A DNA stretch of 64,000 bases from Escherichia phage phi92. Shown in pieces: positions 9,474-54,544 of the stretch; positions within the stretch are counted from its first letter, which is position 1, and each line of letters opens with the position of its first letter. The position numbers and the translations under genes were made by a program. The notes under the pieces were generated by a model. That model saw only the letters and a program-made list of their open reading frames with translations, had not been told where the DNA came from and searched no databases. The stretch lies in the sequence record NC_023693.1; one strand, written 5' to 3'.

Positions 9474-9686
9474 ATGGGAATGTTGCTTCGTGTTTTTGTG
9501 TTTCTTATGTTCTGGATTATCGTTGGTAACGGTATTGTATTTTTGATTTTTCCTGAAGTAATGACAGGTAATGGAAATAAAGCAGTGCCTTACATTATGC
9601 TTATCGGTTACGGCATTGGTACACTTGGATTACTGTTTGCTGACTGGTTAGTCAATACTTTGTTCCTTAAGTACAGGAACAACTAA
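9474..9686 (+). CDS. small membrane protein
   Basis: 70 aa, AAGGAGGAAG SD, two hydrophobic segments. Confidence 0.5.
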   Translation: MGMLLRVFVFLMFWIIVGNGIVFLIFPEVMTGNGNKAVPYIMLIGYGIGTLGLLFADWLVNTLFLKYRNN

Positions 9687-9687
9687 T

Positions 9688-9960: not shown

Positions 9961-9973
9961 ATCAGGAGTAAAA

Positions 9974-10573: not shown

Positions 10574-10728
10574 ATGATGACGTTTATTGTTGGTGTTGTT
10601 GTTGGTTATTTTGGTCACAAGTATCAGGATGTTATCATCGCTAAAGTTGACGAAGTAATCGAAAAATTTAAACACTAATTTTTAAAAGGCTGTACTGCTG
10701 TGCAGCCTATCTTTCAAAGGAGAGTAAA

Positions 10729-10902
10729 ATGTTCAAAGATACCCATTATAAATGTGTACATTGTGGTAAATCTTTTGGTGATCACAAAGCTAAAACATTC
10801 AATTGTCCACGAAAAGGGCGGGGTAGCTTTAAAGGTTTTAATCCATCCCACGTTTATTCTCCCAACTACGAGAAACCAGAAGAAGAAAAATTTGTAATCT
10901 GA
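10729..10902 (+). CDS. small zinc-ribbon-like protein (57 aa)
   Basis: AAGGAGAG SD then ATG; CxxC...C pattern (YKCVHCGK...FNCPRKG); preferred over SD-less track ORF 10700-10897. Confidence 0.4.
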   Translation: MFKDTHYKCVHCGKSFGDHKAKTFNCPRKGRGSFKGFNPSHVYSPNYEKPEEEKFVI

Positions 10903-11536: not shown

Positions 11537-11560
11537 AAACCCGCTTCGGCGGGTTTTCTT
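11537..11560 (+). terminator. rho-independent terminator
   Basis: AAACCCGC-TTCG-GCGGGTTT hairpin followed by TTCTT. Confidence 0.5.
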
Positions 11561-11618
11561 GTATGTGTGTTCTTTATTTGTTATAAGTATTTTCTTAGCA
11601 TAAACAATAGGAGGTATT

Positions 11619-11840
11619 ATGTCTGTAGTTGTAGAAGGTAGTATTGGTTTCTTAGTAGATAACCCTCACCCTTTCGTGGTTAAGGTTCATATTCAAGAAA
11701 AGGTAAGCAACAATACGTGGTTGTGTTTGTTAGATAGTAAGATACACTCTTATACAGAGGTTTATCTTCACACTTGGCAAATTGGTACGATAACAGCAGA
11801 GGATGAATTGATAATTGAACTATATGAACGAGATCTATAG
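11619..11840 (+). CDS. hypothetical protein
   Basis: 73 aa, AGGAGG SD. Confidence 0.5.
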   Translation: MSVVVEGSIGFLVDNPHPFVVKVHIQEKVSNNTWLCLLDSKIHSYTEVYLHTWQIGTITAEDELIIELYERDL

Positions 11841-12015: not shown

Positions 12016-12273
12016 TTAGGAATGCATAAAATCTTCTTCAGGGCAGGTTGAGAGATAAGAGATGCACGTTGGGACAACAACAACATTATCTTTAAGGTTT
12101 GCAACCAAGCCTTTTGTAATTCCAGCCACTGCTCCGTTAATATCTGCTTGACGGATACCAAAACCTTGTTGTGCGGATAGATAACAAAATCCCTCACCTT
12201 TCTGTTGATTATTATTGAAGTAATAAACGTAGTGCATCATAAAATGGTCTTTAACGATTTGTTCTGTGGTCAT
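12016..12273 (-). CDS. hypothetical protein
   Basis: 85 aa, AGGAGA SD. Confidence 0.5.
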   Translation of the reverse strand: MTTEQIVKDHFMMHYVYYFNNNQQKGEGFCYLSAQQGFGIRQADINGAVAGITKGLVANLKDNVVVVPTCISYLSTCPEEDFMHS

Positions 12274-12285
12274 AATATTCTCCTA

Positions 12286-12310
12286 TAAGAAAAGGGGCTT
12301 TCGCCCCCTT
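12286..12310 (-). terminator. rho-independent terminator downstream of Sir2-like gene
   Basis: AAGGGGGCGAAAGCCCCTT hairpin then TTTTCTT on minus strand. Confidence 0.45.
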
Positions 12311-12317
12311 GGTTAAG

Positions 12318-13130
12318 TTATTTAGTCAAATGATCTTCTATCATTTTTATGAAAGCAGGATTGCTAAAAGCATCTGCGGCCTTTTCTCGATAAACAAAGA
12401 CTCCTCTATCTTCGTAAAGAAGAGTTTCTTCGTAATTAATTCCTGGGTTAACAACAATCATTTTTGTACCCATATTAAGTGCAGGGAATAATTCCCAATT
12501 AAAATTGATAACTTGGTTTGAACATCCTACTACAACAACCAAATCTTGCATGGTCAAAGTATCAAACAAGTGAGCCATATCTGCATACAAAGGTGCAGCC
12601 TCACCAAAAAATACAACATTAGGCTTCACCCAGTTGTAATCATCTATGTTTATACTGTTGTAACCAATATCTACCAGTGTTTTGTAATCCCCAGGATGCA
12701 TACGGTAAACTACTTCAGGAAGATATCCGTGCACGTGGATAACAGAATCCCTGTCTACACCTGCTCGCTCTAGTAGATCATCAACGTTTGTTGTCAAGTT
12801 TACTACTTGGTTAGGATATTCCTTAAACCACTTTGCTATTTGAATATGTGCAGCATTAGGTTGTACATCTTTAAGCTCAACACGTCTTTTGTTATAAAAT
12901 TCGTGTGTTTTGGCATACAAATCCATACCGTTTTCATCTACACCACCAACCACTGGAAGATCTGGTGATGTTCTCACACGATAACCTGCTTGGAAAGCTC
13001 CAATATCGCAGATCTCTTCTAAATCCCATTCTTCCCATAGGGCACGACCACTATCTGTGTCTGTTCGGAATGTTCGAATCCCACTATCTGCACTTAAACC
13101 AGCTCCACTAACAAAAATTACTCTTCGCAT
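12318..13130 (-). CDS. Sir2-family (sirtuin-like) NAD-dependent protein
   Basis: GAGLSADSGIRTFR NAD-binding motif, NAAH...TTNVDDL...HVHG catalytic-His block, VVFFGE, VVVGCS, VVNPG; no CxxC zinc ribbon seen; GAGGA SD. Confidence 0.75.
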   Translation of the reverse strand: MRRVIFVSGAGLSADSGIRTFRTDTDSGRALWEEWDLEEICDIGAFQAGYRVRTSPDLPVVGGVDENGMDLYAKTHEFYNKRRVELKDVQPNAAHIQIAKWFKEYPNQVVNLTTNVDDLLERAGVDRDSVIHVHGYLPEVVYRMHPGDYKTLVDIGYNSINIDDYNWVKPNVVFFGEAAPLYADMAHLFDTLTMQDLVVVVGCSNQVINFNWELFPALNMGTKMIVVNPGINYEETLLYEDRGVFVYREKAADAFSNPAFIKMIEDHLTK

Positions 13131-14462: not shown

Positions 14463-15452
14463 TTATTCCCCCATAGATTTAAGAATATGTGCAATGACAG
14501 GTATAGTCCAACCGTTGCCTAACATCTTATATGCTTGTGTGTTACTACTCACTTTAAAGTAATCGTCTGGAACACCTTGTAAGCGGCAACACTCTTTAAC
14601 CGTTAACTTTCTATAATGTACGCCTTCACTCAATTTTTCAAAAGCATCTAGATATCTTCCAGGTGGAATGTAGGCTAATAGTACGTCTTTAGGCACAGTC
14701 GTGAGGCAACGAGTTTTTTCACTGTTCTGAACTTCCAAACAATGTACCAAACGATCAGTTTTAGATGTACTACGTTTGCCATTTTCATTAATTCTACGCC
14801 CATATATTGCTGCTGGATAAAAAACCAGTTGTCTGCGACTCTTTTCAAAATACTGTTCTATATTACCACCTTTGGCATAATTTGCATCTATGCAATAAGC
14901 CTTATCTCTGTCTACAATACTATCATCTTCAATGATATCTTGCAACACTTCATTGGTAATATCCCAGGGTTTTATTTCCCAGTTGCACCAGTATAAACGT
15001 TGTCTATTCTGTGCCGTGAAATCTGCGGAGTTAATGAATACGGGATCAACACCTAAGTAACTTGTGATCACGTTTTCCCACTCCACTTTCATCTTAACGT
15101 TTTCAAGCATGAACTTAACATTAGGGTTAAACTTTTTAATATGTTCAAGAATCTCAACATATTCGAAGAATAGCTTAGATCGCGGATCTTGAAAGTTCAA
15201 ACCTTTACCAGAAGAAGAGAAGCCTTGACACGGACTACCACCTAACAAAAGATCAATTTCTCCCCACGGAATATCCCATTCTCTCCATTTTGTAACATCA
15301 CCTAACTGAATAATATCTGGAAAATTTGCTTGGCTTTCAGCTATGGCGAATTTGTCTAATTCTGAAGCATAATATGTATCTACTTCAATACCTGCACTTT
15401 TTAGCGCAAGCATTCCTCCTGACATACCATCAAAAAGACTTAAAACTTTCAT
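14463..15452 (-). CDS. DNA (cytosine-5)-methyltransferase
   Basis: motif I LSLFDGMSGG, motif IV GSPCQGFS, motif VI ENV, motif VIII QNRQR. Confidence 0.85.
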   Translation of the reverse strand: MKVLSLFDGMSGGMLALKSAGIEVDTYYASELDKFAIAESQANFPDIIQLGDVTKWREWDIPWGEIDLLLGGSPCQGFSSSGKGLNFQDPRSKLFFEYVEILEHIKKFNPNVKFMLENVKMKVEWENVITSYLGVDPVFINSADFTAQNRQRLYWCNWEIKPWDITNEVLQDIIEDDSIVDRDKAYCIDANYAKGGNIEQYFEKSRRQLVFYPAAIYGRRINENGKRSTSKTDRLVHCLEVQNSEKTRCLTTVPKDVLLAYIPPGRYLDAFEKLSEGVHYRKLTVKECCRLQGVPDDYFKVSSNTQAYKMLGNGWTIPVIAHILKSMGE

Positions 15453-40593: not shown

Positions 40594-40620
40594 AGCCCCC
40601 GAAGGGGCTTTATTTCTTAA
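40594..40620 (+). terminator. hairpin with plus-strand T-tract (antisense to surrounding genes)
   Basis: AAGCCCCCGAAGGGGCTT then TATTTCTT on plus strand; no T-tract on minus strand. Confidence 0.3.
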
Positions 40621-41339
40621 GCAATGATTGCTGCGATATTAGGTTTAACAAAGGTAGATGGTTTCATAATTTTACCTTTGTCATCAAAGAATACGTACAC
40701 CTTTTGAACTTCGTTATATACAGCATGTACCCCAGTATAAGAACCTTCTGCACGATCTTTGCTTCGCATCTCGATAGCATCGCACTCTTTTTCAAGAGCT
40801 TCAATAATATCCTTAGTTTCCCAAATAGCCAGGAGTTGCTTCTTGGTAGGATACTTGGACTCATTACTATTCAACACTTCACGCATAACCTTCTTCTCGT
40901 TATAAACAGAACGCACCAAAGTATCTCGTGCCATACGTGTAAGTGTAAGAGACATTAGGGCAAATTGCAAGTCATTTTCTACCATTTTATCAAATTCAAT
41001 GATAACATCGTAGATGTTTTCTGCCAGAACATCTCCTGTCGGCATTTCCAGAGCTTTATCAACACCTTCTTTACCAAAGAACATAAATGCCAGGTAGGAT
41101 GCTACCACAAAAATATCTGCTGCTGCATCAAGTAATTCAACGTGATCATTTTCCTGTGCTGCTGCTTGGAACTCTTTTAGTTCTTCGCGTACAAAAGAAA
41201 GTTGAGCTTCAAACATCTCTTGAGTAAATTCTGGAGTTACTCCACCGCGTGCCTTAGCATTCCAAGCAACAATTTGATCGGCAGCTTTGATAAAGAAGCT
41301 ATTGTCCACTTTTACTTGTTTGAAAAAATTCTCGATCAT
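40617..41339 (-). CDS. MazG-like all-alpha NTP pyrophosphohydrolase (tentative)
   Basis: EMFEAQLSFVREELKEF....ELLDAAADI resembles MazG/HisE helical metal-binding motif. Confidence 0.4.
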   Translation of the reverse strand: MIENFFKQVKVDNSFFIKAADQIVAWNAKARGGVTPEFTQEMFEAQLSFVREELKEFQAAAQENDHVELLDAAADIFVVASYLAFMFFGKEGVDKALEMPTGDVLAENIYDVIIEFDKMVENDLQFALMSLTLTRMARDTLVRSVYNEKKVMREVLNSNESKYPTKKQLLAIWETKDIIEALEKECDAIEMRSKDRAEGSYTGVHAVYNEVQKVYVFFDDKGKIMKPSTFVKPNIAAIIA

Positions 41340-41348
41340 TGTTTCTCC

Positions 41349-41555
41349 TTATTTAAAATATTGTTCTAACAAAACACTAATGCGAACTACCGATTCGCCC
41401 ATATACGCCCCAGCACAGAGGAAAACAACAAATCTACAAAAATTGCAGTACCATTTGTCCACCGGAAACGAGGCTAACATTATAATTGCAATAGCAATTA
41501 ACATCATAAGAACTGTTACTAATACCATATTATCTCTTACTCTGCTGGTTCCCAA
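41349..41555 (-). CDS. small membrane protein
   Basis: 68 aa, hydrophobic. Confidence 0.4.
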   Translation of the reverse strand: MGTSRVRDNMVLVTVLMMLIAIAIIMLASFPVDKWYCNFCRFVVFLCAGAYMGESVVRISVLLEQYFK

Positions 41556-42700
41556 GTACCTGGAATCATCTTACGTAAACGGACACCTGTTGGTTTTGTA
41601 GGTATTCCACCATCGGAAAATTCTTCGTACTCTATTTCAACAAATTGACCAATAAGTGTCAAAGCATTTTCTTCTTTACGATAGTTAATGGTTTCATCTG
41701 AATCCTTACGCATCAGGAATTCGACTACTTTACCATTTTCCATCTCACCTGTCAATACCCCGTCACCATTTTTATCACGTTTTGCACTTACCACTTTAAC
41801 TTCAAGCGTCTGACGTGGTTTACGTTTAATAACATCATAAGAACGTTTATCAAACTCGTAAACACCTTGTGCGTTACGATACACCACACCTTCCGCTTTC
41901 TCACGTAGAGCTTTTGCATAGAAAGCATCAAACTGCTCTTGGTTTTCAATGTACTCTGTATGTACTACACAAATAAGTTCATCTAAACCTTTATCTTCAA
42001 CAACGTCTTTTAGAGCAGCCAAAACTTCAACCCTCTTCTCAAATGGTACAGATGGCACAGGAACATCATATACATAGTATTTAAGAAGCGGAGTGTTAGC
42101 ATTATGCTTTTTCCACGCACTATTAATTTGTTGAAGGCTAAGGACACCCAAACCAGCAAAAACTTCACCGTCAAGAGGATGACCAACTACTTCTTTAATG
42201 AAGGTTGGAATTTCTTTCCAGTGAGGTGGAAGTTTATATACTTCCCCAGCTTTAGATAAACATTCACCTTGCATGTTAATCATTGAACGTAGACCATTCA
42301 ATTTATATTGTGCATAACCTGGGAACAAAACACGATCAGCATAATCTTTATAATCCTGACATTTCATGGGTGTGGAAGGAACATGGTTTTCAGCTTCCTC
42401 TTTTGTTTTATAATACCCATTCTTAAGTTGTTTTGTCCATTTGGCAAGAGCTTCTATTTCAGCTTGTTCTTCTGCTGTTGTTTCATTTGAGCGACCAATA
42501 TTTTTAGGTTCTGCTGTGTAAGATTTGCTAGTAATCTTTCCACCTAATTGACCATGAGCAACAGTTACAACACTACCTTCGGTATAGACTGACCACTGTT
42601 TAATTTTACCTGTAGAAGTTTTACCATACAATGTAGGATTAGTTTGTTTCATCTTTAACCTCCAGTTGCGAAAGAACCCATTTAGCCATTTCAATTTCAC
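41537..42700 (-). CDS. ATP-dependent DNA ligase
   Basis: motif I KLNGLR (KxDG-type), DGEVF, EGVVYR, DVIKRK nucleotidyltransferase motifs; true start may be internal. Confidence 0.7.
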   Translation of the reverse strand: MKLKWLNGFFRNWRLKMKQTNPTLYGKTSTGKIKQWSVYTEGSVVTVAHGQLGGKITSKSYTAEPKNIGRSNETTAEEQAEIEALAKWTKQLKNGYYKTKEEAENHVPSTPMKCQDYKDYADRVLFPGYAQYKLNGLRSMINMQGECLSKAGEVYKLPPHWKEIPTFIKEVVGHPLDGEVFAGLGVLSLQQINSAWKKHNANTPLLKYYVYDVPVPSVPFEKRVEVLAALKDVVEDKGLDELICVVHTEYIENQEQFDAFYAKALREKAEGVVYRNAQGVYEFDKRSYDVIKRKPRQTLEVKVVSAKRDKNGDGVLTGEMENGKVVEFLMRKDSDETINYRKEENALTLIGQFVEIEYEEFSDGGIPTKPTGVRLRKMIPGTWEPAE

Positions 42701-42842
42701 CGTGTAGTCTGCCTAGTTCATAGGCATCATCAATATTACCACCAGTGTAATCATCCACCATAAAGTAAGGATCTTCACTACTGTTAGGCGCGTTTGCAAT
42801 TCTCGTTAGTTCTTCAATAAATGTCATAGTTAACCTTACCAA
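42639..42842 (-). CDS. hypothetical protein
   Basis: 67 aa. Confidence 0.4.
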   Translation of the reverse strand: MVRLTMTFIEELTRIANAPNSSEDPYFMVDDYTGGNIDDAYELGRLHGEIEMAKWVLSQLEVKDETN

Positions 42843-43060
42843 TTATACACAAGAGTTTGAATTTCTTCCATCAAATCTTCAAGATCTGTATCAACATATT
42901 CAGAAGATGTTGCCATAAAGTATGTAATCATTGTGAACCCTTCCGAAGAAAGGGCATCAAGGATATCATTAAACATATCTTCCATTTCAGTATTCTCACC
43001 AAATGAAAATAACATTTGTTGATCTTCGCTTACACCTTTAACATAGATAGCTGTGCTCAT
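42836..43060 (-). CDS. hypothetical acidic protein
   Basis: 74 aa. Confidence 0.45.
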   Translation of the reverse strand: MSTAIYVKGVSEDQQMLFSFGENTEMEDMFNDILDALSSEGFTMITYFMATSSEYVDTDLEDLMEEIQTLVYNW

Positions 43061-43063
43061 ATA

Positions 43064-43384
43064 TTAATCCTTAAGACGTTCATTTAAATCTGCAATAACA
43101 TCACCTAAATCTTCACATTCCAGTGTTAACTCTGAAACTTGTCCACTCAAATAACAAACTTCTTCATTTAGATCTGAAATAATGTTTTCTAATGAATCTA
43201 CTTGGTCATCATATGAACGTTTTGTTTCTTCAAGTTCTTCCGTAAGATCATTAATCAAACGGAGCAAAGATAAGATATAACCGTCTCCTGTCTCGTTCCT
43301 CCACTCACTTCCGTAGCGATAAATAATAATTTCACCATTATCGACTACTGTAAAATACTTACCTTCACCAGAATAAATTTCCAT
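43064..43384 (-). CDS. hypothetical coiled-coil protein
   Basis: 106 aa. Confidence 0.5.
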   Translation of the reverse strand: MEIYSGEGKYFTVVDNGEIIIYRYGSEWRNETGDGYILSLLRLINDLTEELEETKRSYDDQVDSLENIISDLNEEVCYLSGQVSELTLECEDLGDVIADLNERLKD

Positions 43385-43393
43385 AAACTCTCC

Positions 43394-43798
43394 TTATTGT
43401 AGCTTAAGTGAACTGCGAAGACGTTCCTCTTGCTGATCACGAATATGTTGTGGAACCTCATGAATTGAATCGTTACCGTGCCTATTCTCCACAACTAAAG
43501 AAATAACTTGATAACCAAACTCTTCAGCAAGAGTTAAATAGGGTTTAAGTTCTTTTTCTGTAGTAGAGGTATTAGAAACAATAATCTTTTCAACACCATA
43601 CTGCATATATTTTTGTACTTTGACACGACACCATTGGTGTGCTTTATGGATATTCTCTTGTTTCCACTCATACACACCATCTTCAGTGTAGTGGTATTGA
43701 TCTGCCTCACAAATAGGCCAATGATTTTCAGAGATAATTTCTGCTACTGTAGATTTACCTGCACCTGAAACACCACGTAAAATGATAAGTTGTTTCAT
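43394..43798 (-). CDS. P-loop kinase (polynucleotide kinase-like)
   Basis: Walker A GVSGAGKST at N-terminus, 134 aa; resembles kinase domain of T4 Pnk. Confidence 0.6.
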   Translation of the reverse strand: MKQLIILRGVSGAGKSTVAEIISENHWPICEADQYHYTEDGVYEWKQENIHKAHQWCRVKVQKYMQYGVEKIIVSNTSTTEKELKPYLTLAEEFGYQVISLVVENRHGNDSIHEVPQHIRDQQEERLRSSLKLQ

Positions 43799-44731
43799 TT
43801 AGCCTCCAAAGAAGTTTTCTATTTCTTTACGTCGCTCTTGTGGATCTAAAGCAGCCCATTGAGTCTTAGTAAAGTTGTTTCGAAGCCATTCTAGCAAAGT
43901 ATAATATTCTTCGTCAACAATTTGTTTAGCATTGTTTGGGTTGTCCCAAATCATATCCCACTTCTTATTGCCACCACGCATAAGGAATTTTTTAGCAAGA
44001 TAGTATGGTGACTTAATCTTTAACAGTAAGTTAAACGGGTAGTTTGTTTCACGAACAACAAACCCTTCGTGTTTACAATGTTTAGACATTTCAACAACAT
44101 CTGAAAATTTAATCATCGGATAAACTTCAGGACGTTTAAATTTTGTAACAGATGCAATCCCATCAAGAACACCTTCAGGTAACATGAAACTTGTCCCATC
44201 AAGATTTTGAATTCTTGCTCCAATTAAGTATGCGCCTGGTTCTTCTTCGACAATATGTGGGTCAGAAGGATCACAGATTTCAAAAAGAAAAGTTGCTTTT
44301 GCACTTTCTGTCCACTTAATGAAATACTCTATGTCGTCACACTCGGAAACAATACGGTTCTTTGCCATAATTGCGAAATCTGATTCTAGGCTCCCTGTTG
44401 TTGATACAACAAGTTTCCCTTTGTACACACCTACAGATGCCACAAAACCGTTTACTTTACGGACAGCATCTACAATTTCGTCTGCTGGAAGATCTGTACC
44501 ATTTTCAAAACGATTAAAGATTTTAGTAAAAGGCCAAATAACAACATTGTCTTCTGAGTCAACAACCAACCCACGACAATCTAAAAGTCGTTTGTCAACG
44601 TTCCACAAGTTATCCCAGAATACATTGTTTTTGTATTTAAGTACAGCAAGACCAGCATACTCTCCAGATTTAACTTCTTTTTTATGCACTAAACCTTTTG
44701 CAATCAGGTCATCACAATTGAACTTAGCCAC
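43799..44731 (-). CDS. ligase-family nucleotidyltransferase (RNA-ligase-like)
   Basis: motif I VRKVNGF (Kx[ND]G), motif IV EGFVVRE, motif V LLLKIK; second ligase besides the DNA ligase at 41537-42700. Confidence 0.55.
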   Translation of the reverse strand: MAKFNCDDLIAKGLVHKKEVKSGEYAGLAVLKYKNNVFWDNLWNVDKRLLDCRGLVVDSEDNVVIWPFTKIFNRFENGTDLPADEIVDAVRKVNGFVASVGVYKGKLVVSTTGSLESDFAIMAKNRIVSECDDIEYFIKWTESAKATFLFEICDPSDPHIVEEEPGAYLIGARIQNLDGTSFMLPEGVLDGIASVTKFKRPEVYPMIKFSDVVEMSKHCKHEGFVVRETNYPFNLLLKIKSPYYLAKKFLMRGGNKKWDMIWDNPNNAKQIVDEEYYTLLEWLRNNFTKTQWAALDPQERRKEIENFFGG

Positions 44732-44732
44732 C

Positions 44733-45284
44733 TTAATCTCCTTTGATTATCTTATGATGATCTACAACAATAATATCACGCTTATCCATAATAGAGATGA
44801 TTTCGTCAAAATGCAAGATTTTCCCGTGTGCATCCCAACCAACATCCAACATTTTCCCATACAAATGATCAGGGAATGATCCGTGAGAGTGTCCGTGTAG
44901 CATGATTGATCCATGCCCTTGTTTATTCCAGGCAGCCATAGGGTAATGACTTAAGACGAAGAACAGCTTCTGATATTTCACTTCGTCATAATACAAAACT
45001 TCTCCATACTCTGCAAGCACTTTTCTGTGTTTGCTGTAATCATGGTTCCCAACACAGTAAGTAATATCCCCTTGGAGACGGGAAGCAATCTTACGGGTAT
45101 CTTCTTCAGTCCCGAAACAGAAGTCCCCAAGATGGTACATCTTTACTCCTGGTGTTGTGGCACATTTATTCCATGCTTCGATCAGTGCTTCTGTCATATG
45201 CTCCATATCTTCCCACGGACGATATTCAGGAGCAAACTCTCGGATACGTTTGTGCATAAAATGCAAATCACTTGTAATAAACAT
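44733..45284 (-). CDS. metallophosphoesterase (calcineurin-like phosphoesterase)
   Basis: SDLHF, GDF, GNHD, HGHSH motifs. Confidence 0.75.
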   Translation of the reverse strand: MFITSDLHFMHKRIREFAPEYRPWEDMEHMTEALIEAWNKCATTPGVKMYHLGDFCFGTEEDTRKIASRLQGDITYCVGNHDYSKHRKVLAEYGEVLYYDEVKYQKLFFVLSHYPMAAWNKQGHGSIMLHGHSHGSFPDHLYGKMLDVGWDAHGKILHFDEIISIMDKRDIIVVDHHKIIKGD

Positions 45285-45646
45285 TAGTATAATCCCTCGC
45301 TGAATAGTTCACTGTTGTGACCATTTCTTTCGTAGTTAATTTGTTTGGCGTTATCTGCAATGATATAAGCATCTTTGCGACTCCACCAGTTATAATACTG
45401 ATCAATAAACCCTTGATTATCAGGTAAGCAAAACAGTTTATCGATCAATCCTGCATCTTTTAAAACATTAAGTTGTGCAGATAGTACAGGATTTGCATGC
45501 CTAACACAAGGAATAATTAACTCTTCGCCATTGTTAAGAATATACTTATTCGCAGCGCATACTATAACACGTTGAGCATAGTGATCCTCACCAATCCAAG
45601 TAAGAGGTTGGTAACAAATATCATGTTGATTAGTAGCGCACATCAA
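45284..45646 (-). CDS. hypothetical protein
   Basis: 120 aa. Confidence 0.5.
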   Translation of the reverse strand: MMCATNQHDICYQPLTWIGEDHYAQRVIVCAANKYILNNGEELIIPCVRHANPVLSAQLNVLKDAGLIDKLFCLPDNQGFIDQYYNWWSRKDAYIIADNAKQINYERNGHNSELFSEGLY

Positions 45647-45801
45647 TTTTCTCCGTACTCTTTTAATCTATCAGCGAAAAAACTGTAATCAGGAAGTAAA
45701 AGATCATTACTCATATCGTTACAGTTTTCTTCCTCTTTATAGATAAAACGCCCTTCATCCTCTTCTTGCTCTGACCAAACTGAGTAATGCATAATACCTA
45801 C

Positions 45802-46143
45802 TTAATAATTAACACGTTTAATTTCAACACCATAGGATGAAATAAAATTTTCCTTAGCTAACATATATTTACCAGCAGCAGAAGGATTTGATGTATGAAC
45901 ATAGATAGTTTTAAGAGCATCCCATTCACCCGCGTACAACATACATTCTACGTCTAAGAACGCATGATATCCTTCTTGATCTTCTCCAAGATCATTATCG
46001 AAGTGTATCTCTGAGATATTATTGAAATTATCTTCATCTGAAACAAAAGATAACCAATCCTCAAAAGATTTTAACCAAATGGCATCCTCATAACCATAAT
46101 CTTTAGGATCTCTTAAATCGTCTAACCAAAGAATTTTAGCCAC
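45802..46143 (-). CDS. hypothetical protein
   Basis: 113 aa. Confidence 0.5.
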   Translation of the reverse strand: MAKILWLDDLRDPKDYGYEDAIWLKSFEDWLSFVSDEDNFNNISEIHFDNDLGEDQEGYHAFLDVECMLYAGEWDALKTIYVHTSNPSAAGKYMLAKENFISSYGVEIKRVNY

Positions 46144-48178: not shown

Positions 48179-49072
48179 ATGAAAGTTAGTATTCTACATG
48201 GTGTTGGCTGTTATGTTACTGATGTAGACGTTAAAGTCTTTACATTCTCTGGTGGAGAACAACATGTTCAACTAGACACGAATCTATCAGGTTTCAATCA
48301 TGCTACAGACAGAATCTTACTCTCTTTAGAAGTAAGATCTGCTAAAGACTTGATGACTTTGGTTATGACTAAGAATGCATTGGACAATATGCTATATCAT
48401 AAACCATATTGTGTTGATTTGCTCATGTTGTATGTGCCATATGCACGACAAGACAGAGTGTGTGAACCTGGGGAAGCATTCGGAGTTAAAGCATTTGCTT
48501 CTATAATTAATTCATTAAATTTCTCACGTGTTATCGTTGCTGATCCACATAGTGATGTTACTCCAGCGGTGTTTGACAGACTCTGTGTAATACCTCAAGA
48601 AGAAATTGCTTACGAAACTTTAAAGTGGAAGTTACGTATGGAGAATTTTGCTCTTGTTAGTCCTGATGGTGGTGCTCTTAAGAAAATATTTAAATTATCT
48701 AAGAAAATGTCTTTAGATGTGTTCTGTGCAGAGAAGGTTAGAGATACTGCAACAGGTGCTATTGTTCGTACAGACATTTCTGTACAGGATTTCAATAAGC
48801 GTAACCTGATGATCGTAGATGATATCTGTGACGGCGGTAGAACTTTTATTGAATTGGCTAAAGTGCTACGTGCTCGTAACGCAGGTAAGATTGAGTTATA
48901 TGTTACACACGGTATCTTTTCTAAAGGTCTTAAAGAGTTAAGTGAGCACTTTGACTGCATTCATTCTCTTAATGTGTGGGAAGATAACATCCAAGAAGAT
49001 TCCGGTGTTCTTGTTAAGAATCAGTCAGATTTGCAACAACAAATTGTATCTCCATACGTGTGGAATTTTTAA
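48179..49072 (+). CDS. ribose-phosphate pyrophosphokinase (PRPP synthetase) family protein; candidate ADP-ribose pyrophosphate synthetase (Adps-like)
   Basis: VSPDGGALKK and PRPP-binding-type IVDDICDGGRT motifs; AAGGAG SD. Confidence 0.8.
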   Translation: MKVSILHGVGCYVTDVDVKVFTFSGGEQHVQLDTNLSGFNHATDRILLSLEVRSAKDLMTLVMTKNALDNMLYHKPYCVDLLMLYVPYARQDRVCEPGEAFGVKAFASIINSLNFSRVIVADPHSDVTPAVFDRLCVIPQEEIAYETLKWKLRMENFALVSPDGGALKKIFKLSKKMSLDVFCAEKVRDTATGAIVRTDISVQDFNKRNLMIVDDICDGGRTFIELAKVLRARNAGKIELYVTHGIFSKGLKELSEHFDCIHSLNVWEDNIQEDSGVLVKNQSDLQQQIVSPYVWNF

Positions 49073-49081
49073 ATAATAAGT

Positions 49082-49110
49082 GTTGACAATAGGGAGTATG
49101 CTTAGTAAGA
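49082..49110 (+). promoter_or_regulatory. sigma70-like promoter (TTGACA-N17-TAAGAT)
   Basis: between the PRPP-synthetase-like and NAMPT-like genes. Confidence 0.45.
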
Positions 49111-49143
49111 TACTCCCACACTAACAAACAAGGAGACATAACT

Positions 49144-50877
49144 ATGAATATTTTTGCACCTTTTGCTACTGATTGGTATAAACCTGGTCACAAGCAGATG
49201 TACAACCAAAATACAAAACTCATTTTCTCTAATTTAACTCCTCGTAATGATAAAAACTTTGCACACTATGCAGATCGTGAAGCACGTGGTGTGATTGTTT
49301 TAGGTATTCGTCGAGCAGTCACTGATGCTCTTGTAACTATGTGGGATAGCTTCTTTAAAATGTCTCGTAGTGCAGCAGTAAATAAATTTTATCGTATGTC
49401 TAAAAATGCATTAGGTGCTTCTGCTCCTTCTGCTGAATGTTGGGAAGAATTGCACGATTTAGGTTATCTTCCGCTAGAAGTTCGATCTCTGCCAGAAGGT
49501 GTTTTGTGTCCTATTGGTGTTCCTGTGTTTACTGTGCATAATACTTTAGAAAAATTCTTTTGGTTAACTAACTATGTGGAAACACTATTGTCAGATGAAA
49601 CTTGGAAGACAATGACTAATGCCACAGCAGCTTTTCAGTATAAGCGTATCGCTATGGCGTATGCGATGGCAACGTGTGATAACATTGATCACGTTAATTT
49701 CCAGTGTCATGACTTTAGCCTACGTGGTTTAAGCAATATCGAAGATGGTTATAAGAGTGGTATCGCTCATTTGGCATCTTTCACAGGAACAGATAACATT
49801 CTGGCTATTGAGACTGTGCATGATTATTATGGTATTGATTATGATCAGTTTGTTGCAGGTTCTATTCCGGCAACAGAACATTCAGTAGCAACGACTAACA
49901 TTGGAGCTATTGTTGAAGATCTGAAGAAACATTTCCCACATCTTAAAGATGATGTTGATGGGCTTCGTTATGTAGCAGAGAAAGAGTTTCTTCGCCGCTA
50001 TATTGAAGAAATTGTTCCAGAAGGTTTTTGTTCATATGTAGCAGATTCTTATGATTACTGGGCTGTCTTGACTCGCATTCTGGTAGAATTGAAAGAGTCC
50101 ATTATGTCACGAAATGGTCGTCTTGTTATTCGTCCAGATTCAGGAGATCCGGTTAAAGTTGTTGCAGGATACAATGTTGAATCTTTTGCTAACTATGAAG
50201 ACCTTTTAAATAATGGTATTGCTACAGCCACTGAAGTAGTTCATTTGGCTGATGTTAATAAGTATTACAATGTTCTTCAGGATTGCAGTGTTGCTGATTG
50301 TATTGATGAAACTTATGAGATTCCTTATTGTGAAGCAGTAGGTTCTATTCAAATCCTTTGGGAAGTGTTTGGTGGTACTATCAACCGAAAAGGCTACAAG
50401 GTTCTTGATCAGCACATCGGTATGATTTATGGTGATTCTATTACTGTTGAACGAGAATACGAGATCTTACGCCGACTGAAGAAGAAAGGTTTTGCAGCTT
50501 CCAATATTGTATTTGGTGTTGGTAGTTATACTTATCAGTTCAATACACGAGATACTTTTGGTTTTGCTGTTAAAGCAACAGGTAGTATCATCGGTGAACA
50601 CGAAATTTTGGTAAGTAAGGAGCCTAAAACTGATCCTGGTAAACGCTCTGCAAAAGGTTTTATTAAGGTTGTTAAGGATACAAATGGTAAACTTTCTCTT
50701 GTGGATAATCTTTCTTTTAAAGATATCCAAGATGAAGACAATGAGTTAAAAGTTATCTTCAGGGATGGTACGGTTATTACACCACAAGTAGAAGGACGTG
50801 ATGAAACATTTACTGATATCCGCAACCGTGTTGATGTAGAGGTTCTTCGTACTATGGGAACCATCCAGGTTGACTAA
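49144..50877 (+). CDS. nicotinamide phosphoribosyltransferase (NAMPT) family protein; candidate nicotinamide ADP-ribose transferase (Namat-like)
   Basis: N-terminal TDWYKPGH (DSYKxxH-like), RPDSGD, FGVGSYTYQFNTRDTFGFAVKAT blocks of NAMPT family; AAGGAGA SD. Confidence 0.8.
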   Translation: MNIFAPFATDWYKPGHKQMYNQNTKLIFSNLTPRNDKNFAHYADREARGVIVLGIRRAVTDALVTMWDSFFKMSRSAAVNKFYRMSKNALGASAPSAECWEELHDLGYLPLEVRSLPEGVLCPIGVPVFTVHNTLEKFFWLTNYVETLLSDETWKTMTNATAAFQYKRIAMAYAMATCDNIDHVNFQCHDFSLRGLSNIEDGYKSGIAHLASFTGTDNILAIETVHDYYGIDYDQFVAGSIPATEHSVATTNIGAIVEDLKKHFPHLKDDVDGLRYVAEKEFLRRYIEEIVPEGFCSYVADSYDYWAVLTRILVELKESIMSRNGRLVIRPDSGDPVKVVAGYNVESFANYEDLLNNGIATATEVVHLADVNKYYNVLQDCSVADCIDETYEIPYCEAVGSIQILWEVFGGTINRKGYKVLDQHIGMIYGDSITVEREYEILRRLKKKGFAASNIVFGVGSYTYQFNTRDTFGFAVKATGSIIGEHEILVSKEPKTDPGKRSAKGFIKVVKDTNGKLSLVDNLSFKDIQDEDNELKVIFRDGTVITPQVEGRDETFTDIRNRVDVEVLRTMGTIQVD

Positions 50878-51624: not shown

Positions 51625-51700
51625 GGTTCCATAGCTCACTGACGAGAGCGCACACCTCATAAGTGTCGAGGGCAGGGATTGTAACCCTGGGGAACCACCA
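51625..51700 (+). tRNA. tRNA-Met/Ile2-like (anticodon CAT), non-canonical T-loop
   Basis: manual fold: acceptor GGTTCC/GGAACC, D-stem GCTC/GAGC, anticodon loop CTCATAA, T-stem CAGGG/CCCTG with loop ATTGTAA, CCA encoded. Confidence 0.5.
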
Positions 51701-51731
51701 TTTAAAAGGAGGTGCTATGCATCTCCTATAT

Positions 51732-51817
51732 GCAAGTGTGGTGGAATTGGTGATACACATTGTGCTTAAAACGCAACGCTTAAATGCTTGAGGGTTCGAA
51801 TCCCTCCACTTGCACCA
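51732..51817 (+). tRNA. tRNA-Leu (anticodon TAA)
   Basis: manual fold: acceptor GCAAGTG/CACTTGC, anticodon stem TTGTG/CGCAA, loop CTTAAAA, long variable arm, T-arm GAGGG-TTCGAAT-CCCTC, CCA. Confidence 0.7.
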
Positions 51818-51833
51818 ACACCTAAAAAATATC

Positions 51834-51862
51834 TTGACATTTACTTAGTTTTTTGTTATAGT
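51834..51862 (+). promoter_or_regulatory. sigma70-like promoter (TTGACA-N17-TATAGT)
   Basis: immediately upstream of tRNA-like element at 51874. Confidence 0.45.
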
Positions 51863-51873
51863 TACTATGAAAA

Positions 51874-51955
51874 CGGGGTGTATCTCACCTGACTTCTAAT
51901 CAGGCGTTAACCGAGTAATTGGAGTATGCAGGTTCGAATCCTGTCACCCCGGCCA
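51874..51955 (+). tRNA. tRNA-like element, identity unresolved (candidate anticodon loop CTTCTAA)
   Basis: acceptor CGGGGTG/CACCCCG, T-arm GCAGG-TTCGAAT-CCTGT, CCA; perfect hairpin CCTGA-CTTCTAA-TCAGG but no D-arm found by eye. Confidence 0.4.
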
Positions 51956-51973
51956 AAAAGTTTTAAAAACTAC

Positions 51974-52002
51974 TTGACAAGCAAGATAGTTTTATGTTAG
52001 AT
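51974..52002 (+). promoter_or_regulatory. sigma70-like promoter (TTGACA-N17-TTAGAT)
   Basis: upstream of tRNA-Ser at 52019. Confidence 0.4.
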
Positions 52003-52018
52003 TTAAAGTATGATAACT

Positions 52019-52108
52019 GGAAGGTAGGGCGCAGCGGTGCGCAACCAGGTTTGAACCCTGGCCCATTGTAGCGATACGGTGATGGTTCGACTCCATTATC
52101 TTCCTCCA
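52019..52108 (+). tRNA. tRNA-Ser (anticodon TGA)
   Basis: manual fold: acceptor GGAAGGT/ATCTTCC, anticodon stem CCAGG/CCTGG loop TTTGAAC, long variable arm, T-loop TTCGACT, CCA. Confidence 0.65.
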
Positions 52109-52114
52109 AATTCA

Positions 52115-52279
52115 ATGAGTGATTTTATGAATTATAAAACTATTGGACAGGTTGTTACCGGAGTTAAGATTGTAAATAATAAAGTTGTTTATGAGTATTC
52201 TAATCTTCAACAATCTGAAGATGGTAAGAATATTCGTATGGTAAAAACAGAACAAAAAGATTCCGGTTGTTTTGAATAA
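52115..52279 (+). CDS. small hypothetical protein inside tRNA cluster
   Basis: ORF between tRNAs; start uncertain (ATG 52115 or 52127); weak SD. Confidence 0.3.
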   Translation: MSDFMNYKTIGQVVTGVKIVNNKVVYEYSNLQQSEDGKNIRMVKTEQKDSGCFE

Positions 52280-52287
52280 TTAAAAAC

Positions 52288-52373
52288 GGTAGATTGGTGA
52301 AATGGTAGCCACAACAGTTTGCTAAACTGTCGTCGGAAACGGCGTGTAGGTTCAAGTCCTACATCTACCGCCA
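52288..52373 (+). tRNA. tRNA-Ser (anticodon GCT)
   Basis: manual fold: acceptor GGTAGAT/ATCTACC, anticodon stem ACAGT/ACTGT loop TTGCTAA, long variable arm, T-arm GTAGG-TTCAAGT-CCTAC, CCA. Confidence 0.7.
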
Positions 52374-52507
52374 AGTTATCTTTAATGTAGCTTGTAATCT
52401 TACTTTAGCAGAGTAAACTTTCGGCAGATGGTGGCAGCCATTTTACCGATACCCCAATACTTCATAGCTAAGTGCCGCAAACACTGGCTATTTTAAAGAT
52501 AATTTAT

Positions 52508-52583
52508 ACATCGTTAGCTTAGTTGGTAGAGCAAGGGTCTTTTAACTCCAAGGTCGAAGGTTCGAATCCTTCACGATGTACCA
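52508..52583 (+). tRNA. tRNA-Lys-like (anticodon TTT), weak anticodon stem
   Basis: perfect acceptor ACATCGT/ACGATGT, D-arm GCTTAGTTGGTAGAGC, loop CTTTTAA, T-arm GAAGG-TTCGAAT-CCTTC, CCA; anticodon stem only about 3 bp. Confidence 0.55.
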
Positions 52584-52588
52584 AACAT

Positions 52589-52675
52589 GTAGGTATCGCA
52601 TAGCGGCAATTGCTGGAGACTGTAAATCTCTTGCCCTTCGGGGCTTCGTTGGTTCGAGTCCAACTACCTGCACCA
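52589..52675 (+). tRNA. tRNA-Tyr (anticodon GTA)
   Basis: manual fold: acceptor GTAGGTA/TACCTGC, anticodon stem GGAGA/TCTCT loop CTGTAAA, long variable arm, T-loop TTCGAGT, CCA. Confidence 0.65.
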
Positions 52676-52682
52676 AATTAAA

Positions 52683-52767
52683 GATGGATTGGCCTAGTGG
52701 TTGGGCGACGGACTGTTAATCCGTGAACGAAAGTTCTAGCAAGGTTCAAATCCTTGATCCATCGCCA
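52683..52767 (+). tRNA. tRNA with Asn anticodon (GTT) on a class-II (long variable arm) body
   Basis: manual fold: acceptor GATGGAT/ATCCATC, 3 bp D-stem, anticodon stem ACGGA/TCCGT loop CTGTTAA, variable arm hairpin GAAC-GAAA-GTTC, T-arm CAAGG-TTCAAAT-CCTTG, discriminator G, CCA. Confidence 0.55.
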
Positions 52768-52772
52768 TATAG

Positions 52773-52840
52773 TGCTTGTAGAGTTAATAGAAACCTCTAG
52801 AATTTTCTAGAATTGTAGGTATCAAATCCTACCAAGCAAA
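52773..52840 (+). tRNA. degenerate tRNA-like remnant (possible pseudo-tRNA)
   Basis: T-arm-like GTAGG-TATCAAAT-CCTAC with 8 nt loop, no CCA, overlapping TCTAGA inverted repeats instead of a clean anticodon arm. Confidence 0.2.
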
Positions 52841-52846
52841 TATTTT

Positions 52847-52921
52847 GCTCCTATCGTATAACGGCTATTACGGTTGCCTTGTAAGCAACTTATCAGGGTT
52901 CGAGTCCTTGTGGGAGCACCA
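52847..52921 (+). tRNA. tRNA-Thr (anticodon TGT)
   Basis: manual fold: acceptor GCTCCTA/TGGGAGC, anticodon stem GTTGC/GCAAC loop CTTGTAA, T-loop TTCGAGT, CCA. Confidence 0.7.
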
Positions 52922-52943
52922 ATTTAACTCTAAAGGAGTGTAT

Positions 52944-53267
52944 GTGACAGAAAAAGAGTTAGAGAAATATTTTAATATCAATGTTTTCGATGGTTTTGAT
53001 GATATTGAAGATGTTGAAAGATATTATGAAGTAGAGTTAGATAAGGATAACATTGTAATTCTTTCTGCCACTTATGATTGTGCATATTATGAAGGTGAAT
53101 CTCACGTTTATTTCTATGATATGAAAACATCTTTGTTTTATGAAGTACACGCATATCATTGTTCTTGTTATGGCTTAGAAGGTCAGTGGGAACCTGAAGA
53201 AATAGGTGATTTGGACTTTACTATTGCATATCTAAACAGACGTGGTGCATCTACTATTTTAAAATAA
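52944..53267 (+). CDS. hypothetical protein inside tRNA cluster
   Basis: GTG start after AAAGGAG SD; in frame with track ORF 52845-53267, whose 5' part overlaps tRNA-Thr. Confidence 0.45.
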   Translation: MTEKELEKYFNINVFDGFDDIEDVERYYEVELDKDNIVILSATYDCAYYEGESHVYFYDMKTSLFYEVHAYHCSCYGLEGQWEPEEIGDLDFTIAYLNRRGASTILK

Positions 53268-53281
53268 ATATTAAAAGCCTC

Positions 53282-53311
53282 TTGACAAAGGGGCTAATAA
53301 TATGTTAGAGT
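53282..53311 (+). promoter_or_regulatory. sigma70-like promoter (TTGACA-N18-TAGAGT)
   Basis: upstream of tRNA-Gly. Confidence 0.45.
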
Positions 53312-53322
53312 AATATTGTTAA

Positions 53323-53397
53323 GCGGGTATAGTGTTAATGGTAGCATATGAGGTTTCCACCCTCCAGGTGCAGGTTCAAGTCCTGTTACTCGCTCCA
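53323..53397 (+). tRNA. tRNA-Gly (anticodon TCC)
   Basis: manual fold: acceptor GCGGGTA/TACTCGC, anticodon loop TTTCCAC, T-arm GCAGG-TTCAAGT-CCTGT, CCA. Confidence 0.6.
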
Positions 53398-53828
53398 AGA
53401 TTATTTAAATGGAATCGCTAGAGAAAATTTCTCTTTTCGCTCATGGTTTTCTCCTTCAAACTCTAGCGGTTCTTTTTAAGTGATTTTTTAGTTTATTGGA
53501 GATTCACTGCCTTAGTGTGAGCTAAAATCGAGGAGCCATCGAACTGTCTGATTAATGATTTGCGAATCATTATAGTTTTAAGACCCCGGCAGTTTTATGG
53601 TGTACCTCTTGAATGTGAATGATGACGGGTTTATGGTTATCCTGGTCGTTAAATATCCAAAAACCTATGTTCCCCTTGAGGGCTTGCGCAGGCAATGCCA
53701 ATAAGTCCTGCATTTTCATTTAAAAGAGAATTTATAATGGAAAAAGATGAACTTAAGTATGCTAAGCCTCTGGCTTCTGCTGCACGAAAAGCAGTTCGTC
53801 ACTTTGTGGTAACACTGAAGTAATTTAT

Positions 53829-53903
53829 TGGAGATTGGCCTAGTGGGAAGGCAACGGCCTTTGAAGTCGTGATGACTAGGTTCGATTCCTAGATCTCCAG
53901 CCA
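53829..53903 (+). tRNA. tRNA-Gln (anticodon TTG)
   Basis: manual fold: acceptor TGGAGAT/ATCTCCA, anticodon stem ACGGC/GTCGT loop CTTTGAA, T-arm CTAGG-TTCGATT-CCTAG, CCA. Confidence 0.65.
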
Positions 53904-53910
53904 AGATTTA

Positions 53911-53986
53911 CAGTGCGTAGCGCAGTTGGTAGCGTGGGAGCCTTGGACGCTTCAGGTCGCAGGTTCGAGTCCTGCCGCACTGACCA
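53911..53986 (+). tRNA. tRNA-Pro (anticodon TGG)
   Basis: manual fold: acceptor CAGTGCG/CGCACTG, anticodon loop CTTGGAC, T-arm GCAGG-TTCGAGT-CCTGC, CCA. Confidence 0.65.
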
Positions 53987-53991
53987 AATTT

Positions 53992-54066
53992 GCAGAGATA
54001 GCTGAGACGGATTAGTGCTACCCTGAAAAGGTAGAAAGGATGGATCGTTACCATCTCTCTGCACCA
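53992..54066 (+). tRNA. tRNA-Phe (anticodon GAA), atypical T-loop
   Basis: manual fold: perfect acceptor GCAGAGA/TCTCTGC, anticodon stem CTACC/GGTAG loop CTGAAAA, T-arm GATGG-ATCGTTA-CCATC, CCA. Confidence 0.6.
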
Positions 54067-54143
54067 AATAACACCATCCAAGGAGAATACTTGGTTAACT
54101 GTCAATAGCACATTGAGGCTTCTTACAGTGGTGTACTTATTAT

Positions 54144-54228
54144 GGCTAAGTGGTGGAATGGTATACACGATACGCTTAGAACGTATTGCCCCAAGGGATT
54201 GTGAGTTCGAGTCTCACCTTAGCTACCA
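54144..54228 (+). tRNA. tRNA-Leu (anticodon TAG)
   Basis: manual fold: acceptor GGCTAAG/CTTAGCT, anticodon stem ATACG/CGTAT loop CTTAGAA, long variable arm, T-arm GTGAG-TTCGAGT-CTCAC, CCA. Confidence 0.7.
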
Positions 54229-54243
54229 AATTATTACAAGTTT

Positions 54244-54322
54244 CGCGGGATAGAGGAGTCTGGTCGTCCTCGCCAGTTTCATATGCTGGAGATCGTAGGT
54301 TCAAATCCTACTCCCGTTACCA
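54244..54322 (+). tRNA. tRNA-Met (anticodon CAT), initiator-like
   Basis: 5' CGCGGGA with unpaired position 1-72 (as in bacterial tRNA-fMet), anticodon stem CCAGT/GCTGG loop TTCATAT, T-arm GTAGG-TTCAAAT-CCTAC, CCA. Confidence 0.6.
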
Positions 54323-54387
54323 ACAAATACCTCCCTTCTGGTGTAATGATTAAATTACATTGACACTTCAAGGAACTCATAGCCGGG

Positions 54388-54463
54388 TAGATTTAAAAGA
54401 GTATGGTACTCAATATGGCTCCAAACCATAGATCAGGGGGTTCGATTCCTCACCTTGCTGCCA
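54388..54463 (+). tRNA. tRNA-Trp-like (anticodon CCA), acceptor stem not resolved
   Basis: perfect anticodon arm TATGG-CTCCAAA-CCATA, D-stem GAGT/ACTC, T-loop TTCGATT, 3' CCA; 5' acceptor strand does not pair well by eye. Confidence 0.4.
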
Positions 54464-54468
54464 ATTAT

Positions 54469-54544
54469 TGTGGTATCGTACAGATGGTTAGTACACTCGA
54501 CCGATAATCGAGAAACAACGGTTCGACTCCGTTTACCACGACCA
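54469..54544 (+). tRNA. tRNA-Ile (anticodon GAT)
   Basis: manual fold: acceptor TGTGGTA/TACCACG, anticodon stem CTCGA/TCGAG loop CCGATAA, T-arm AACGG-TTCGACT-CCGTT, CCA. Confidence 0.65.

Follow-up and report, generated by a model that had tools for sequence, protein, structure and literature searches.

Gene organisation of the locus

Three consecutive genes on the minus strand of Escherichia phage phi92 (NC_023693.1) encode a calcineurin-like metallophosphoesterase (nt 44733-45284, 183 aa), an RNA ligase of the T4 Rnl1 family (nt 43799-44731, 310 aa, with a GTG start) and a P-loop kinase (nt 43394-43798, 134 aa), and are examined here as a candidate RNA repair module. They lie within a window of 64,000 nt, which is the whole stretch of DNA that was analysed and to which all phi92 coordinates refer. 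The phage is a phi92-like Justusliebigvirus (Stephanstirmvirinae), and nt 43000-46000 show 97-98.5% identity to phages Eryne, BME3, phiWec187 and EmilieFrey. A preliminary description, made from the DNA sequence without database searches, had reported kinase, ligase and phosphoesterase as separate open reading frames (ORFs) in a row on this strand; the three genes are found at the positions it gave, and all of the motifs it quoted are present. The phosphoesterase carries LGDFCF, VGNHD and LHGHSHG, the ligase RKVNGF, HEGFVVRE and LLLKIKS, and the kinase the P-loop motif MKQLIILRGVSGAGKST.

The genes are tightly packed, with 1 nt between phosphoesterase and ligase and 0 nt between ligase and kinase, and the Shine-Dalgarno sites are embedded in the preceding genes of the triad (AAAGGAGATTAAGGTG; GGAGGCTAAATG). 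At the upstream end, the stop codon of an ORF of 120 aa overlaps the phosphoesterase start in a TAATG junction. A scan for promoters and terminators between 40 and 48.5 kb returned 33 and 6 sites, respectively, no excess over the 28.8 and 3.6 seen in shuffled sequence, so these counts are uninformative on the transcription unit. A separate ATP-dependent DNA ligase at nt 41537-42700 (minus strand), also proposed in the preliminary description, is borne out by matches to DNA_ligase_A_M (PF01068, E-value 1.2e-10) and phrog_114 (2.9e-75); its presence means that the phage has a DNA ligase other than the Rnl1-type enzyme. As for a second RNA ligase, no Rnl2-like enzyme was detected in the window at an E-value of up to 1. 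NCBIfam provided a useful name for none of the three triad proteins.

Sequence and structure comparisons of the three proteins

The ligase matches the Pfam family RNA_lig_T4_1 (PF09511; 3.8e-14, 53.5 bits, cut-off 28.3) and phrog_562 of the PHROGs database (3e-68). Searches of the PDB with single sequences gave no match for the ligase and marginal matches only for the kinase, and profiles built from viral homologs were needed to obtain PDB matches for these two proteins. A profile of 31 ligase homologs matched the sequence of T4 Rnl1 (3.8e-10), with the motifs ECRG, PxxKxFN, KxxG, FE, EG(F/Y)V and KIKS superposed. All of the nucleotidyltransferase motifs are kept, namely KxxG of motif I, the Glu of motifs III and IIIa, EG of motif IV and KxK of motif V, and the predicted adenylylation lysine is K92 in the sequence KVNG. 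Residues R53, G54, K70, F72, K92, G95, E151, E222, G223, K238 and K240 are invariant in the 31 homologs. The series R53, K70, F72, K92, G95, E151, E222-G223, K238 and K240 aligns with R54, K75, F77, K99, G102, E159, E227-G228, K240 and K242 of T4 Rnl1, residues that are reportedly essential according to mutagenesis by the Shuman laboratory.

An AlphaFold2 model of the ligase has a predicted local distance difference test score (pLDDT) of 91.6. When this model was compared with known structures using Foldseek, the closest matches were T4 Rnl1 (2.9e-13), the ligase domain of fungal Trl1 (1.6e-12), archaeal Rnl3 (1.8e-10), Rnl2 (8e-7) and Rnl5 (9e-6), while DNA ligases scored 6e-5 or weaker, at least two orders of magnitude behind Rnl2. 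The model ends in a helical C-terminal region (residues 242-307) with conserved basic residues (K247, K248, R252, K257 and R300). Pfam match, catalytic residues and predicted fold all place the protein among the ATP-dependent RNA ligases of the T4 Rnl1 family, and the same three lines of comparison uphold, as a prediction, the earlier proposal that this second ligase of the phage is directed at RNA.

The kinase matches the Pfam family AAA_33 (1.8e-10, 41.7 bits, cut-off 27) and phrog_505, 'polynucleotide kinase' (1.3e-9). With a profile built from 48 homologs at viral loci, the best PDB match was T4 Pnk (2.6e-9), aligned over the full length (positions 3-130), whereas the match to adenylate kinase 9 (3.6e-9) covered the P-loop segment only (positions 3-35). 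Further matches were to Pnkp1 of the Pnkp1-Rnl-Hen1 complex (5.5e-8), the Ser-tRNA(Sec) kinase PSTK (4e-7), CthPnk (1.7e-6) and mammalian PNKP (3e-6). The invariant residues of the family are R8, G9, G14, K15, D33, Y43, Y87 and H113, of which K15 is the P-loop lysine and D33 aligns with the catalytic D35 of T4 Pnk. No HAD-type (DxDxT) 3'-phosphatase domain was found on the protein, whose 134 aa comprise the kinase domain alone. Its sequence relationships point to a stand-alone Pnk-like P-loop kinase of a divergent clade, with 5'-OH RNA as the presumed acceptor.

The phosphoesterase falls below the gathering cut-off of 27 bits for Pfam Metallophos_2 (3.8e-4, 20.9 bits) and matches phrog_547 (2e-54) and PDB entry 1xm7 (1.8e-6). 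Across 45 homologs its metal-binding motifs (D6-x-H8, G53-D54, G79-N80-H81-D82, H113, G131-H132 and H134) show conservation of more than 90% or are invariant, and a model with a pLDDT of 94.5 confirmed the calcineurin fold. About 2,500 homologs are present in the protein database, a number that is also found for the ligase. The protein belongs to an aq_1665/COG4186-like clade and not to the lambda-phosphatase-like clade that includes the phosphatase of Clostridium thermocellum Pnkp (CthPnkp); the calcineurin fold has been recruited independently. CthPnkp and lambda phosphatase, both of calcineurin fold, hydrolyse 2',3'-cyclic phosphates (PMC2190708). A similar role for the phi92 enzyme, if true, would be the first function for the aq_1665/COG4186 clade, which has had a solved structure and lacked a role since 2004. 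An alternative role, by way of the 'phage phosphatases' of the aRES/NARP1 preprint, was considered and rejected, as those are Macro-domain enzymes. Each of the three activities proposed in the preliminary description is therefore backed by homology at the level of prediction, through an Rnl1-type ligase, a Pnk-like kinase and a phosphoesterase with intact metal motifs.

Linkage and fusion of the three genes in viral genomes

The surroundings of ligase relatives (40-96% identity) were examined at 80 viral loci, with flanks of 6 kb searched at each. Homologs of the kinase were present at 71 of these loci and homologs of the phosphoesterase at 65, and all three occurred as separate genes at 59. 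The gene order among the latter varies: phosphoesterase-ligase-kinase in 36, kinase-ligase-phosphoesterase in 21, ligase-phosphoesterase-kinase in one and a divergent arrangement in one. After clustering of the ligases at 70% identity, the triad was retained in 33 of 42 clusters. Other neighbours are lineage-specific, and include a DNA ligase (27 loci), MazG (12), a sirtuin (11), a cyclic-phosphate-processing receiver-like protein (cREC; 10) and the 120-aa protein (3).

The genes are also found fused. At 11 loci the kinase and ligase form a single ORF of 421-432 aa, and in one of these (locus L053) Pfam places AAA_33 at residues 16-115 and RNA_lig_T4_1 at residues 184-367. Two proteins, P0246 and P0273, are phosphoesterase-kinase fusions. 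In P0246, residues 14-188 match the phi92 phosphoesterase (43% identity, 3e-41) and residues 192-315 the phi92 kinase (33% identity, 3e-20), and its gene begins 1 nt past an orthologous ligase gene (39% identity, 1e-65). The fusions seen in relatives are pairwise only, with no polypeptide carrying all three domains. Linkage that survives reshuffling, together with both kinds of pairwise fusion, is what would be expected of enzymes of one pathway; that the three proteins work together is strongly backed by these observations and is the best-supported point of the analysis. Since the triad persists in most loci without a nearby sirtuin or cREC, it represents the core, and the sirtuin and cREC are accessories, bearing in mind that flanks of 6 kb leave room for a more distant sirtuin at other loci.

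The fusion loci show some further features. Proteins of 229-236 aa encoded upstream were considered as a substitute phosphatase and rejected, having neither a Pfam match nor obvious 2H motifs. One phage with a kinase-ligase fusion (L042) carries an Rnl2-type ligase (PF09414 and a PHA02142 OB domain; nt 8530-9609, plus strand) and a phosphoribosyl pyrophosphate (PRPP)-synthetase-like gene (nt 9612-10454, plus strand), both 1.7 kb downstream of the fusion.

Predicted repair pathway

The triad probably specifies an RNA healing-and-sealing pathway of the T4 type that is split over three polypeptides and most likely mends cut tRNAs. We infer the activities, the substrate and the nuclease that is countered as follows. 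A metal-independent host ribonuclease would cut tRNA or another RNA to leave a 2',3'-cyclic phosphate and a 5'-OH. The metallophosphoesterase, judging from its linkage and from other calcineurin-fold enzymes, would open the cyclic phosphate and remove it, or a 3' phosphate, to give a 3'-OH. The kinase would phosphorylate the 5'-OH from a nucleoside triphosphate, as suggested by its homology to T4 Pnk and the conservation of K15 and of the candidate base D33, and the ligase, given its conserved catalytic residues and fold, would adenylylate itself on K92, form AppRNA and seal the break. The likely role of such a pathway is to rejoin tRNAs cleaved by nucleases of the host defence, beside the 15-16 tRNA genes of the phage itself. 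If it works as predicted, the triad would be a second, widespread answer to the problem that T4 solves by Pnkp and Rnl1, and would go some way to explaining how large coliphages of the rV5 and phi92 groups cope with nucleases of the PrrC, RloC and Schlafen types, besides carrying tRNAs.

A number of points weigh against this interpretation. The ligase is 64 aa shorter than T4 Rnl1 and has a reduced C-terminal domain of ~65 aa, compared with ~120 aa for the tRNA-specificity domain of the T4 enzyme (residues ~255-374); as this is about half the T4 length, a tRNA preference of the phi92 ligase is unproven. In addition, the position of K119 in T4 Rnl1 is occupied by an invariant Thr112 in this ligase family. 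The kinase family has no conserved equivalents of R38 and R126, two arginines of the acceptor and lid sites of T4 Pnk, and instead has the invariant H113 within S-I-H-x-V-P, while R106 is confined to the phi92 clade, so that the acceptor specificity of the kinase is not assured. As the aq_1665-like clade is uncharacterised and distinct from the CthPnkp/lambda clade, it is linkage that speaks for an action of the phosphoesterase at RNA 3' ends, and a recognisable phosphoesterase is missing near all 11 kinase-ligase fusions. Only 14 of the 50 diverse loci scanned had tRNA genes at a distance of up to 6 kb from the module, in several cases as clusters, a proportion that is suggestive but comes without a proper baseline. 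Finally, a literature search for biochemical or genetic experiments on the split module found none.

Relationship to known systems

The closest phage-encoded counterpart is the T4 pair of Pnkp and Rnl1, which repairs tRNA-Lys after cleavage by PrrC. The ligases share family, catalytic residues and fold, the phi92 kinase and the N-terminal kinase domain of T4 Pnkp are homologs (P-loop, and an Asp at the position of D35), and the predicted chemistry is likewise to heal and then seal. The T4 kinase, however, is fused to a phosphatase of the HAD/DxDxT type, whereas the phi92 kinase stands alone and is accompanied by an unrelated phosphatase of calcineurin fold; the lid arginines of T4 Pnk are also not conserved. 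Bacterial Pnkp-Hen1 (Clostridium thermocellum) and Pnkp1-Rnl-Hen1 (Capnocytophaga) resemble the triad in combining a P-loop kinase, a binuclear metallophosphoesterase and an ATP-dependent ligase. They differ in that the activities occur in one polypeptide rather than in three genes, and the phi92 ligase is of the Rnl1 type rather than a Pnkp ligase domain. A partner corresponding to the 2'-O-methyltransferase Hen1 was not seen, no methyltransferase domain being found among the neighbours scanned (40.6-47.8 kb). Trl1 of fungi and plants has a ligase domain that is an equal structural match (Foldseek, ~1e-12) and a kinase of the P-loop polynucleotide kinase class, but uses a 2H cyclic phosphodiesterase that leaves a 2'-phosphate, and needs Tpt1; a 2H domain was not found in phi92.

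Close relatives of the locus have been noticed before. Iyer, Burroughs, Anantharaman and Aravind (2022; PMC9503650, section 3.7.3) predicted an RNA repair function for a sirtuin neighbourhood of rV5/Mydo-type phages that comprises a sirtuin, a T4-like tRNA ligase, cREC, a nucleotide kinase, MazG and 'occasionally' a calcineurin-like enzyme. Genes for the ligase, cREC, kinase, MazG and calcineurin-like protein are all found in phi92 within nt 40617-46143 on one strand. In phi92, by contrast, the sirtuin lies 30 kb from the other genes, unlinked to them, and the order is rearranged to cREC-x-x-phosphoesterase-ligase-kinase; moreover, the phosphoesterase is no occasional member across the 80 loci but a near-constant one, and it is the sirtuin, cREC and MazG that vary. 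GenBank entries of near-identical phages label the products 'RNA ligase', 'putative RNA ligase/RNA repair', 'polynucleotide kinase' and 'phosphoesterase'. Given these labels and the 2022 prediction, the RNA-repair reading is not new: the system was already known as a prediction, the gene set is confirmed here, and its reading as a healing-and-sealing module is supported by homology and genomic context. What is added here is the triad as a conserved core, the two types of fusion, a phosphoesterase of the aq_1665 type that stands apart from the Pnkp phosphatase clade, and a histidine in place of the lid arginines of the kinase.

Neighbouring genes

The cREC gene (nt 45802-46143, minus strand, 113 aa) lies 0.5 kb upstream of the module and matches PF20274 (2.3e-14). 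Such proteins are predicted cyclic phosphodiesterases (PMC7824862, PMC9503650). Between it and the phosphoesterase is the gene of the 120-aa protein of unknown function (nt 45284-45646, minus strand; phrog_839, 3.9e-47), homologs of which carry PF26092 and in some records are annotated as 'putative anti-restriction nuclease'. A distant homolog is also found near the module in one other virus (L072), and it is uncertain whether the protein is a member of the module. On the opposite side, just downstream of the kinase, is a coiled-coil protein of 106 aa (nt 43064-43384, minus strand) that matches phrog_18076, 'hol-like chemotaxis' (2.9e-57), shows no convincing Pfam match and is confined to close relatives. 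Further downstream, 2 kb from the module, is a MazG-like nucleotide pyrophosphohydrolase (nt 40617-41339, minus strand; PRA-PH, 3.2e-7; phrog_671, 6e-28), which is a neighbour of the module in the rV5/phi92 lineage only.

No sirtuin adjoins the phi92 module, and the homolog (nt 12318-13130, minus strand; SIR2, PF02146, 2.8e-22) is ~30 kb away. It shares 55% identity with the SIR2 protein of an rV5-like phage (L004; tblastn, 2.4e-100), in which the order is phosphoesterase-x-x-ligase-cREC-kinase-SIR2, with the sirtuin directly after the kinase. In phi92 the sirtuin gene is at the far end of a long minus-strand block, close to a C-5 cytosine DNA methyltransferase (nt 14463-15452, minus strand; PF00145, 3e-44). 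The cREC, MazG and sirtuin genes are additions peculiar to the rV5/phi92 lineage. Just upstream of the tRNA cluster, and divergent from the repair genes, are a PRPP-synthetase-like gene (nt 48179-49072, plus strand; TIGR01251, 2e-34) and a NAMPT/NAPRTase-like gene (nt 49144-50877, plus strand; NF006629, 1e-137), a pair similar to NARP1 (Adps and Namat), the pathway by which phages reconstitute NAD+ according to Osterman et al.

Alternative explanations

The main alternative is an NAD+-dependent, Trl1-like route, as in the published model of Iyer et al. (PMC9503650), which would use the same kinase and ligase to different effect: cREC or the phosphoesterase would turn the cyclic phosphate into a 2'-phosphate by opening it, the break would be sealed by the kinase and ligase, the sirtuin would strip the 2'-phosphate by ADP-ribosyl transfer in the manner of Tpt1/KptA, and MazG, cREC or the phosphoesterase would clear the ADP-ribose by-products. 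The ligase model fits T4 Rnl1 and the ligase domain of fungal Trl1 about equally well, cREC and MazG flank the module at 0.5 and 2 kb, a SIR2 homolog occurs in the window and directly behind the kinase in the rV5-like phage, and an NAD+-rebuilding gene pair is present at nt 48179-50877. This route is nevertheless unlikely, as SIR2 and cREC accompany only 11 and 10 of the 80 loci, compared with 65 for the phosphoesterase, and the triad persists without them. The sirtuin of phi92 is also 30 kb distant, no sirtuin is known to remove 2'-phosphates from RNA, and the metallophosphoesterase of CthPnkp, like lambda phosphatase, can heal the cyclic end fully without a partner (PMC2190708). A combined reading can be offered tentatively, and is a possibility rather than an expectation: a hitherto uncharacterised aq_1665-type class of 2',3'-cyclic phosphodiesterase/phosphatase that heals RNA 3' ends, the minimal, His-containing Pnk-like kinase and a compact Rnl1 would form the very widespread core, which in rV5/phi92 phages would be coupled to cREC and the sirtuin acting as an NAD+-dependent RNA 2'-phosphotransferase. 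If true, this would be a Trl1/Tpt1-like tRNA ligation of a phage, fed by its own NAD+-rebuilding genes.

The T4-style pathway could also serve RNAs other than damaged tRNA, in which case it would not be a device aimed at anticodon nucleases in particular; it might mature or join phage transcripts, circularise RNA, or mend mRNA or rRNA after cleavage by toxin ribonucleases. The chemistry suits any break whose ends carry 2',3'-cyclic phosphate and 5'-OH, the module is not consistently beside tRNA genes, and the C-terminal region of the ligase falls far short in length of the T4 Rnl1 domain for tRNA specificity. Against this, T4 Rnl1 and Trl1, the nearest enzymes of known function, both act as tRNA ligases, and the phage devotes 15-16 genes to tRNAs, among them the known nuclease targets Lys(UUU), Tyr and Asn; substrates of another kind are improbable. 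T4 Pnkp acts on DNA as well, and the kinase and phosphoesterase might clean 5'-OH and 3'-phosphate DNA ends for the DNA ligase, with the Rnl1-like protein incidental. A DNA ligase homolog does lie within 6 kb at 27 of the 80 loci, and exonuclease and recombination genes are found downstream, yet most loci lack a DNA ligase, it is the Rnl1-type ligase instead that takes part in the fusions and the tight linkage, and the Rnl1-type fold is far from that of DNA ligases; processing of DNA ends is thus highly improbable. Hardly conceivable is that the ligase is mainly a catalyst of tail fibre attachment (the second activity of T4 gp63) among unrelated enzymes of nucleotide metabolism. The PHROG/Pharokka label 'RNA ligase and tail fiber protein attachment catalyst' would favour this, but the label is inherited from T4 gp63, the gene is surrounded by genes of replication and nucleotide metabolism rather than by structural genes, and the linkage and fusion with the kinase and phosphoesterase would go unexplained.

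tRNA genes

The tRNA cluster of phi92 (nt 51625-54544, plus strand) contains 15-16 genes, rather than the number of about 18 given in the preliminary description: ARAGORN detected 15 and Rfam 14, one of them additional, for a union of 16. It includes tRNA-Lys(UUU), Tyr, Asn and Gln. Of these, tRNA-Lys(UUU), Tyr and Asn are known nuclease targets (PMC10264068), and the cluster may provide substrates of the repair pathway or act as a parallel counter-measure. By analogy with T4 and PrrC, the repair module may counter host anticodon nucleases.

Several of the gene calls differ between the programs. The tRNA at nt 52508-52583 (plus strand) scores 63.7 bits with Rfam and was given a two-base anticodon, 'tt', by ARAGORN. 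By eye it is tRNA-Lys(UUU), the classic PrrC target, with a normal CUUUUAA loop and an anticodon stem weakened by mismatches (27A.43A and 31U.39C). The tRNA at nt 51874-51952 (plus strand) was found by Rfam alone (38.6 bits), and tRNA-Met (nt 51625-51700, plus strand) and tRNA-Ser (nt 52019-52108, plus strand) by ARAGORN alone. Related RNA genes were also seen within a few kb of the repair module in unrelated viral contigs: a tmRNA gene in L053 (nt 12189-12591, plus strand), and tRNAs with a CTA anticodon (amber-suppressor type, ARAGORN 'Pyl') in L025 (nt 11546-11621) and L081 (nt 10671-10743), both on the plus strand.

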